A stretch of DNA of 64,000 bases. Origin: Ostreococcus lucimarinus (taxonomy: Eukaryota). Within the stretch, counting starts at the first letter, position 1, and each line of letters begins with the position of its first letter. Below the pieces are notes generated by a model that saw only the letters and a program-made list of their open reading frames with translations, did no database searches and was not told where the DNA came from. The DNA is taken from assembly GCA_000092065.1 (NCBI GenBank), contig CP000585.1; one strand, 5' to 3'. This document shows positions 26,100 to 30,575 of the stretch, piece by piece. Position numbers and translations under genes: made by a program.

Positions 26100-27050
26100 T
26101 CACTCGATGCCATCGGCCGCGTCCACGACCGGGATGCGCACCATGAATCCGACGCTGTCGCCCTCGCGTTCCGTCTGCGCGCCGTACCGAAACACGAGCT
26201 CGAAGAAATTCGCGTTGTGCGAAATCCCCAACAACAGCGTGCTCGGATGGCTCGCGCACCCCAAAAACCCGCGCTGAAGATGTTTCACGCTCAGCGTCAC
26301 GCTCGTCCCGATCGCCGCGCTCTTAATCTCCGCTAATCTCGCCGCCACCCCCCCCGCCTCGGGCGCGCCCTCGTCGTACTCGTCCGCCTCCTCCGGCAGC
26401 ACGCGCAGACCGCGATACTCCATCCCGAGCGCTCGCACGCTCCCCCCGCTCGCATTCATGTACAGCCCCCCCTGCCGCGTCGTCGTCACCTCCACCACAT
26501 CGCTCACCCGCGCGAACCGCTCCACGCACTCCCGCAGCGATTCCAACGCGAACCGGTCGCACTCCAACCAATACCCCACGTCCCGCACGCTCGCCTCCAC
26601 CGCCGCCTCGCACGCCCTGACCTCCTCCCCCCTCAGCGGTCCCACCACCGGCACGTCCCGCTCCACCTCCACGCTCGCCTCCGTCGTCTTAAAGTTTACG
26701 CACGGCGCGCTCGCGCTCGCCGCGCTTCGTCGCCGTTTGATCAGCCTGCACTCCGCCCGCGTCGCCTCCAGCGCGATCATCCCTCGCACCGTCCCCGCCA
26801 GCGCGCTCGGCTCGAGCTTCACCGCGATCTTATCGTCGCACGCGGACGAGATCCTGCACCGCTCGAACACCTCGTCGACGCGAAAGTCGGCGTGCGCGGC
26901 GACGCCGTCGGCGACGCGCGAGCTTTGGACGACGCGAACCGTCGTCGGCGTCAGCAGCAGCGTCGCCTCGCCGCCGAGCCGGTCGAACACGGGGGCGAAG
27001 CGATCGAGCCAGCGCGCGCCGACGTCGCCGAGCGTCGCGCGGAACTTCAT
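26100..27050 (-). CDS. HUS1: HUS1-like checkpoint clamp (9-1-1) subunit
   Basis: ORF 26100..27197. Start at MKFRATLGD (ATG 27050..27048) mirrors the human HUS1 start MKFRAKIVD. About 316 aa, typical of HUS1. Overall similarity is weak. Confidence 0.55.
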   Translation of the reverse strand: MKFRATLGDVGARWLDRFAPVFDRLGGEATLLLTPTTVRVVQSSRVADGVAAHADFRVDEVFERCRISSACDDKIAVKLEPSALAGTVRGMIALEATRAECRLIKRRRSAASASAPCVNFKTTEASVEVERDVPVVGPLRGEEVRACEAAVEASVRDVGYWLECDRFALESLRECVERFARVSDVVEVTTTRQGGLYMNASGGSVRALGMEYRGLRVLPEEADEYDEGAPEAGGVAARLAEIKSAAIGTSVTLSVKHLQRGFLGCASHPSTLLLGISHNANFFELVFRYGAQTEREGDSVGFMVRIPVVDAADGIE

Positions 27051-27128
27051 CGCGCGCGGCGTCGCGATGTGTCGCGACGAATTCAAATTTAAATCCGAGC
27101 TGTCGGCGACACATCTCGACGCACCGCG
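27051..27128. promoter_or_regulatory. putative bidirectional promoter, HUS1-like (-) / RECQL4-like (+), 78 bp between start codons
   Basis: Inferred from the divergent start codons. Confidence 0.25.
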
Positions 27129-30100: not shown

Positions 30101-30575
30101 GGATATCATTCCTCTCGCGAAGGCACTCGCAGACCATTGCTCGGAGATTGAAGCGTGCTCGGTCGGGAAATTAGACGCACTGTACAACGCCATGGATGAA
30201 GCCGCTAACGCGGAGGACGAAGAAGCCCAAGGCGAGCACCTGCGCCAGTGTTTAGCAGAGTACCTGAACGAAGATTCCGACATGCTCCCGTCGCCGCCCG
30301 AGTGCGTCAAGCAAGAGTCGCAGCTCTTGGCGCCCGACATTAAAACTCTCCTCGCGCACAGAAGCGGTGGCAAGGTTGGCGGAGCGGGGATGATGACCGC
30401 GCGCGCCATTGCGCGTGTTCTGCACAAGCTCCATTCTCCGGCTTACCCGAGCAAGGAGTGGTCGCGACATCACACCTGGGGCCGACACGCTGAGGTTGAC
30501 TTTAAAGTCATCCTCTCTCGCGCTGAGGAGGCAATCGCGAAGGCGCGCGGGATCGATACAGGCGCTCTCAAGTAA
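27129..30575 (+). CDS. RECQL4: RecQ-family DNA helicase with RECQL4-like architecture
   Basis: ATG 27129. Long low-complexity basic N-terminus of about 470 aa. Helicase core [43 protein letters not shown] is near-identical to human RECQL4 motif I. Also [36 protein letters not shown]. No obvious RQC/HRDC domain. Confidence 0.82.
   Translation: [1148 protein letters not shown]

Follow-up and report, generated by a model that had tools for sequence, protein, structure and literature searches.

The 78-bp spacer between divergent HUS1 and Sld2-RecQ4 genes of Ostreococcus lucimarinus: a conserved CHR-like core and a possible bidirectional cell-cycle promoter

Bidirectional promoters are reportedly found at animal DNA-repair genes, BRCA1-NBR2 being one example, and Adachi and Lieber in 2002 and Trinklein et al. 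in 2004 are said to have described them. A similar configuration, two head-to-head genes separated by under 1 kb with genome-maintenance genes among them, is present in a 64 000 nucleotide stretch of GC-rich, gene-dense eukaryotic DNA from Ostreococcus lucimarinus (GenBank assembly GCA_000092065.1, contig CP000585.1; this whole stretch is referred to as the window). The gene for HUS1, a subunit of the 9-1-1 checkpoint clamp (26100–27050, minus strand, 316 residues, intron-less), and the gene for Sld2-RecQ4, the orthologue of RECQL4 (27129–30575, plus strand, 1148 residues, intron-less), diverge from start codons separated by 78 bp (27051–27128), a spacer which contains both 5′ leaders and, putatively, a shared bidirectional promoter. 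The locus differs from the animal examples in that this spacer is far shorter, measured between the two ATGs, each partner is part of the machinery of replication and checkpoint control, and the whole spacer is dyad-symmetric. The 78-bp head-to-head arrangement was described in an initial annotation of the window and proved correct, both starts being backed by family profiles or by orthologue alignments from the first residues. With no more than 78 bp separating the ATGs, overlap of the promoters is unavoidable. We consider the chances about even that the spacer is a compact bidirectional promoter with a core of the CHR type (from cell cycle genes homology region), which would place HUS1 and RecQ4 under shared cell-cycle regulation.

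The CHR consensus bound by LIN54 is TTYRAA, and TTTGAA, TTTAAA and TTCGAA account for ∼80% of functional CHRs; these elements are functional in inverse orientation and are located on or beside the transcription start site, and the tyrosines of LIN54 that contact DNA are conserved in plant TSO1/CPP1 (PMC4974476, PMC4176359). Promoters with a CHR only are known (PMC3287175), and C. elegans DRM promoters are described as enriched for adjacent E2F and LIN-54 sites (PMC3093354). Human RECQL4 is among the DREAM targets (PMC5729532), the CXC protein CHT7 of Chlamydomonas is a repressor of genes for DNA replication and mitosis (PMC8895990) and O. tauri has an RBR-E2F/DP module (PMC7527812), all of which, by analogy, would fit a CHR-type reading of the spacer. 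The locus resembles the CHR, CDE/CHR (cell cycle-dependent element/CHR) and E2F plus CHR promoters of these systems (DREAM/MuvB-LIN54, TSO1/TCX5 and CHT7) in its TTYRAA sequences, which occur in either orientation near the presumed start of transcription, and in the E2F-like site adjacent to them in the spacers of Micromonas-like relatives. The spacing is different, being 4 nt in mammalian CDE/CHR promoters as opposed to 8–25 nt between the hexamer and the E2F-like site in Micromonas-like spacers. Ostreococcus differs further in having two abutting inverted hexamers in what would be a bidirectional promoter, and the spacer in the window lacks an E2F-like site.

Conservation of the arrangement was assessed over a set of 94 loci, which were recovered by looking up exact protein matches and by scanning metagenomes once with the HUS1 alignment; the head-to-head orientation was determined by tblastn, and only loci with enough upstream DNA were assessable. 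Synteny in related genomes had been proposed as a check in the initial annotation, and the pair was found head-to-head throughout: RecQ4 lay on the opposite strand, upstream of HUS1, in every assessable Mamiellales locus. These were, in approximate numbers, 31 Ostreococcus loci (at least five clades, HUS1 identity 59–100%), 32 Micromonas-like loci (several clades, GC 0.57–0.71, contigs of up to 2.1 Mb) and seven Bathycoccus loci, including the NCBI B. prasinos chromosome, on which the previously unannotated neighbour of 507 residues is Hus1. The distance from ATG to ATG was 78–133 bp in Ostreococcus, 166–400 bp in Micromonas-like loci and 241–270 bp in Bathycoccus, making the spacer in the window the shortest of all lineages compared. 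The pair was retained in the Micromonas-like loci despite differing outer flanks, where DHFR-TS, a short-chain dehydrogenase and TMEM18 replace NIP7, an RRM gene, MMtag and Fe-ADH.

The pairing was absent in two distant outgroups, at a Phytophthora RecQ4-like gene and at sea-urchin RECQL4. A homologue search with the HUS1 alignment for green algae beyond the Mamiellales returned Mamiellales only, and the outgroups are limited to Phytophthora and sea urchin. In humans, HUS1 and RECQL4 map to separate chromosomes. The arrangement is old, being present in every Ostreococcus, Bathycoccus and Micromonas-like locus recovered, and its conservation across the order is reported here for the first time.

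The spacers of different clades could not be aligned to each other, and a de novo word count was performed on 18 representatives. TTCAAA/TTTGAA was the sole hexamer present in 18/18; the runners-up were common CG-rich words, found in no more than 13 of the 18. The hexamer was also present in 13/13 mutually non-redundant spacers, and none of 1000 dinucleotide-preserving shuffles had any hexamer in more than 12 spacers, or TTCAAA itself in more than six. It was found in 5/22 other promoter-containing intergenic regions from annotated O. tauri, Bathycoccus and Micromonas-like loci and in 5/25 control upstream regions of 250 nt from Micromonas-like loci, and 46 copies are present in the window. 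These data identify a statistically robust, conserved CHR-like core as a new finding.

In the window the core (27082–27093) consists of two adjacent CHR-type hexamers, TTCAAA (27082–27087) and TTTAAA (27088–27093), which form the only AT-rich stretch of a GC-rich spacer and lie at its centre, 31–37 nt from either ATG. Relatives with 96–99% HUS1 identity carry TTCAAATTTGAA or TTTGAATTCAAA, perfect 12-bp palindromes of two inverted hexamers. Beside the core an E-box-like motif, GAGCTGTC (27097–27104), is common to most Ostreococcus spacers as (G)ACAGCTG(TC), and AGCTGTC was present in five of the six Ostreococcus representatives. The E-box-like word, as (G)ACAGCTG(TC) or GAGCTGTC, adjoins the TTCAAA core in loci L005, L030, L033, L037 and L041, its orientation being variable.

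An E2F-like site (SCGSSAA) preceded the hexamer by 8–25 nt in 9/9 Micromonas-like spacers, with constant order and orientation; the variants were GCGGGAA, GCGCGAA, GCGCCAA and CCGCCAA. The E2F-like site and hexamer together form a module situated 68–96 nt upstream of the RecQ4 ATG. The same pattern was found in 1/9 and 1/6 control promoters. Among the other Ostreococcus and Bathycoccus representatives an E2F-like site was detected in L041 only, 32 nt from the hexamer. Upstream regions of DHFR-TS, a hoped-for S-phase positive control in which the start codons were imprecise, had the hexamer in 3/10 and an E2F-like site in 5/10. A further word, GGGTGCC(T/C)A, is common to the Micromonas-like spacers of L013, L016, L049, L054, L055, L061, L064, L070 and L077.

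We propose that the 78-bp spacer would act as a single compact bidirectional promoter for HUS1 and RecQ4, with the adjacent TTCAAA and TTTAAA hexamers (TTYRAA) as its functional core. Transcription would start on either side of this core, since it is central and 31–37 nt from either ATG. On the model of the DREAM/MuvB promoters of animals and plants, a CXC-domain protein of the tesmin/TSO1/LIN54 type would bind the core, and in the Micromonas lineage this protein would act with E2F at the adjacent site. The outcome would be that HUS1 and RecQ4 are restricted to proliferating or S-phase cells. The sequence comparisons establish which genes these are, their spacing, the conserved arrangement and motif and the dyad symmetry; a shared promoter, a binding factor of this identity and co-expression in the cell cycle are inferred, shared cell-cycle regulation being plausible.

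Several observations weigh against this proposal. TTYRAA is not diagnostic alone, because it is short, AT-rich and present in ∼20% of control promoters. The spacer in the window was searched for an E2F-like site and none was found, and the Micromonas-like E2F plus CHR module, 68–96 nt from the RecQ4 ATG, is 90–310 nt from the HUS1 ATG and may serve mainly RecQ4. Human HUS1 is not in the list of DREAM targets that has RECQL4 (PMC5729532). Lastly, the conserved unit is a three-gene block and not the pair alone. An open reading frame without a Pfam hit (30631–31953, minus strand), convergent with RecQ4, adjoins it in Ostreococcus, Bathycoccus and Micromonas-like loci by tblastn, and ∼2 of ∼9 Ostreococcus junctions at the locus survive in Micromonas-like genomes. 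Retention of the HUS1/RecQ4 junction is therefore not statistically remarkable by itself, and the pair may have been kept as ordinary residual synteny. The Micromonas-like version of this third gene corresponds to the N-terminal ∼480 residues of a protein of 1674 residues.

Such residual synteny is one element of a wider explanation, in which the two genes became neutral neighbours through compaction of the extremely dense Mamiellales genomes and use separate minimal promoters, with no selection for co-regulation, and have stayed together as a breakpoint in a spacer of 78–400 bp would damage a promoter. We regard this as a serious rival, though less probable than the shared promoter. The commonest distance between genes in Ostreococcus is near 200 bp (PMC10662239), divergent pairs are frequent (five in a 17-kb O. 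tauri locus), synteny between Ostreococcus and Bathycoccus is high overall (PMC3491373), and both the conservation of the convergent gene in the same three genera and the unpaired genes of the two outgroups are as neutral adjacency would have them. Neutrality does not explain why a single AT-rich hexamer was kept in every spacer when the remainder has diverged beyond alignment, nor why the order of E2F-like site and hexamer is constant in Micromonas-like spacers, and two fully independent promoters would be physically hard to fit into 78 bp.

The core could also be functional without being a CHR bound by a DREAM-type complex, acting as a TATA-like or initiator-type element or as the target of an unrelated dimeric factor on the palindrome TTCAAATTTGAA, which we think unlikely. 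The palindromic form in close relatives does suggest a symmetric dimer, a TATA-like element would likewise be the sole AT-rich stretch in a GC-rich spacer, and an E2F-like partner is missing from the Ostreococcus and Bathycoccus spacers with the exception of the distant site in L041. The hexamer is, however, absent from most control promoters, hence it is not a generic core element, and the E2F-like pairing in every Micromonas-like spacer fits the E2F plus LIN54 architecture of DRM/DREAM promoters (PMC3093354, PMC4176359).

The CHR-type reading may be extended from the window to the whole order, to an ancient bidirectional cell-cycle promoter, pared down here to 78 bp, with a driving CHR-type element that is a palindromic double in Ostreococcus and is joined by E2F in Micromonas; we advance this version only tentatively. 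If it were true, promoter logic of the LIN54/TSO1 DREAM type would operate in the earliest-branching green algae and would link Sld2-RecQ4, a replication initiation factor, with a subunit of the checkpoint clamp. Should the TTYRAA pair be a CHR, the DREAM/MuvB promoter grammar would extend to the Mamiellales and would have undergone turnover there, with E2F plus CHR in Micromonas and a double CHR in Ostreococcus, and the spacer would provide a 78-bp part for cell-cycle-phased dual expression in Ostreococcus. The genes themselves are known, and the useful product would be a very small natural bidirectional promoter, evolutionarily footprinted, in a tractable picoalga. The locus also points to a possible regulatory connection of 9-1-1 with Sld2-RecQ4. 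Both act through TopBP1/Dpb11.

A further new finding is that the spacer in the window is close to a palindrome over its whole length. A repeat search identified two arms, 27053–27075 and 27106–27128, that are 87% complementary, the left arm forming the HUS1 leader when read on the minus strand and the right arm the RecQ4 leader. Complementarity extends to 27 of 38 position pairs, where shuffled sequences gave 15.5 ± 1.8 and 0/1000 reached 27, and the centre of the dyad falls at 27090/27091, in the middle of TTTAAA. Folded as single-stranded DNA, the spacer gave one hairpin (−24.9 kcal/mol, z −2.83). As the spacer is near-palindromic, both genes have a nearly identical 23-nt leader before the ATG (GCGACACATC...). 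Global dyad symmetry was absent in the seven other spacers tested, five of them from Ostreococcus clades and two Micromonas-like, and the dyad is a recent trait of the species group of the window and not of the promoter family; it could have arisen by inverted duplication, by gene conversion or by selection. Out-of-frame upstream ATGs are placed symmetrically at 27067–27069 (plus strand) and 27115–27113 (minus strand), each lying beyond TTCAAATTTAAA as seen from its own gene. This placement suggests that, in each direction, transcription begins at the core or slightly past it.

The closest described relatives of the RecQ4 gene are the O. tauri Sld2-RecQ4 orthologue, already published by Gaggioli et al. 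(2014; PMC3926958), who concluded that the Sld2-RecQ4 fusion is the ancestral state, and metazoan RECQL4 (5LST, 2KMU). The product comprises an Sld2-homology region I, RecQL4_N54-like (27138–27287, residues about 4–53), a RecQ-type SF2 helicase core delimited by Pfam DEAD and Helicase_C and by 5lst alignments (28521–29600, residues about 465–824), with motif I at 28596–28652 (residues 490–508), and a RecQ4-specific C-terminal region without RQC or HRDC (29601–30572). DEAD and Helicase_C matched with 79.8 and 76.1 bits, and RQC, HRDC and RecQ_Zn_bind gave no Pfam match in this protein even at E-values of up to 10. All the top matches in PDB were RecQ helicases; with the single sequence the best was human RECQL4 (5lst, 277 bits), followed by E. 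coli RecQ (262), BLM (209), RECQ5 (200), RECQ1 (199) and WRN (183). The margin of RECQL4 over other RecQ proteins widened with a profile built from Mamiellales only (A3), which gave 392 bits for RECQL4, 332 for E. coli RecQ and 285 for BLM and which continued along 5lst past the helicase core as far as chain residue 511; the alignment became full-length once metazoan sequences were included, a result that is partly circular. The nearest named eukaryotic matches outside the Mamiellales were urchin and bird RECQL4, and the C-terminal region has many columns in common with both.

The N-terminal region was recognized through its family. Alone, the RecQ4 of the window fell short of the 28-bit cut-off for Pfam Drc1-Sld2 (17.4 bits, E-value 0.0038); the corresponding position gave 46 bits in a Micromonas-like orthologue and 43 in sea-urchin RECQL4. 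A single-sequence phmmer search of PDB with the N-terminus returned nothing relevant, a family profile being needed. Profile A4, 57 columns built from Mamiellales RecQ4 N-termini only, had as its sole meaningful PDB match 2KMU, the human RECQL4 N-terminus (E 1.3e-13, residues 3–53), and this conserved domain anchors the RecQ4 start codon. With RECQL4 as the best match in PDB, an Sld2-like N-terminus and no RQC or HRDC, the RECQL4-type helicase of the initial annotation stands. The sequence comparisons make it secure as a true Sld2-RecQ4/RECQL4 orthologue, an identity already known (the JGI name for the cluster is 'ATP-dependent DNA helicase Q4'). It shares with the O. tauri and metazoan proteins motif I TGAGKS, the lack of RQC and HRDC and a post-helicase region that aligns to RECQL4, and differs from them in a shorter, highly divergent linker that joins the Sld2 region to the helicase and in an Sld2 region that is sub-threshold for Pfam and only seen with a family profile. 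At A100-T101-P102 (27426–27434) the motif EATPxK is invariant in 9/9 Mamiellales RecQ4 proteins, in an acidic context, and P102 is conserved in urchin and bird RECQL4 also; T101-P102, within the Sld2-like region, is a candidate cyclin-dependent kinase phosphorylation site.

HUS1 was compared with human HUS1, part of the RAD9-HUS1-RAD1 clamp (3G65, 3A1J, 3GGR); genes for its partners RAD9 and RAD1 do not occur in the window. The call had been flagged as weak and held in profile searches. The protein matched Pfam PF04005 with 96.3 bits (E 2.3e-27, cut-off 27 bits), residues 1–280 aligning with profile positions 1–266 of 288. Profile A1, an alignment of nine Mamiellales orthologues, matched only human HUS1 chains in PDB (3g65, 3a1j and 3ggr; 3.7e-13, residues 1–277) and no other PCNA-like clamp subunit; a single-sequence phmmer search of PDB gave nothing relevant, and here too the family profile was needed. 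In O. tauri the orthologue (69% identity) bears the name 'Checkpoint protein Hus1/Mec3', and the JGI cluster name is 'HUS1 checkpoint protein', so that the identity, secure from these matches, is already routine annotation. As mechanically called, the minus-strand open reading frame extends to a GTG at 27197. The true start is at 27050, because the Pfam Hus1 match and all orthologues begin at the methionine of MKF(R/K)A; the ATG occupies 27050–27048 and the stop codon 26102–26100 on the minus strand, and the N-terminus reads MKFRATL.

The Pfam Hus1 match is full-length and begins at MKFRA, which is also the beginning of human HUS1 in the PDB alignment, and the profile match spans chain residues 1–256 of 280; the protein differs from human HUS1 in its low sequence identity, and the Bathycoccus orthologue differs in its long low-complexity insertions. 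In B. prasinos (OZ116922.1; locus L012, 6236–7759) asparagine-rich and acidic insertions and a long tail bring HUS1 to 507 residues, and a precomputed Pfam table assigned no family to this protein, which direct hmmscan identified as Hus1 at 2.8e-16.

The initial annotation had also described an unusual concentration of genome-maintenance genes in the window. A functional cluster made up of HUS1, RECQL4, MER3, an SNF2-RING protein and DHX35 is very improbable, as, although several helicase-family genes do occur within 64 kb, DHX35 is an RNA helicase of the spliceosome, an F-box but no RING was detected in the SNF2 protein, MER3 is only a candidate, unrelated genes (DOCK, the HCO3 transporter, RPI, NIP7, Fe-ADH and the giant Kringle gene) intervene between the pair and the others, the ±7 kb recovered on both sides of the pair in Micromonas-like or Bathycoccus loci contained none of the other helicases, and the count was made post hoc. 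The DHX35 orthologue, a DEAH protein (2574–4814), was correctly named, scoring 690 bits against human DHX35 and 544 against DHX16; the role in genome maintenance that was ascribed to it did not hold. The SNF2-family gene (52032–57347, minus strand, 1771 residues), which had been called RAD5/SHPRH-like, encodes a split SNF2 domain with the F-box at residues 235–267.

The MER3-like Ski2/Sec63 helicase (open reading frame 12984–15986, minus strand) has a single cassette and ends with CCHC zinc knuckles, features compatible with MER3/HFM1, and among solved structures it comes closest to SLH1, ASCC3 and BRR2. This reading frame begins at position 31 of the DEAD profile, and a 5′ exon or the true start lies outside it. 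A TTTGAA at 17138 was considered as a MER3 promoter element and was dropped, being inside an exon of the patatin-like gene (16680–18313, plus strand). That gene has an apparent short first exon at ∼16680–16765 and a ∼170-nt intron that ends near 16935, and the long open reading frame on the opposite strand (16106–17119) is probably spurious. The remaining genes of the window are unrelated to genome maintenance and encode GFAT, a PhzF-like protein, DOCK, the patatin-like protein, RPI, a bicarbonate transporter, an RRM protein, NIP7, Fe-ADH, a Kringle protein of 3874 residues, a TrmD-like protein, DUF2046, CSN5, trehalase and GST. The Kringle protein (35210–46834, plus strand), which is encoded by a single open reading frame and combines three Kringle domains with a TSP1/spondin repeat, seems an unusual giant protein of extracellular type for a picoalga.

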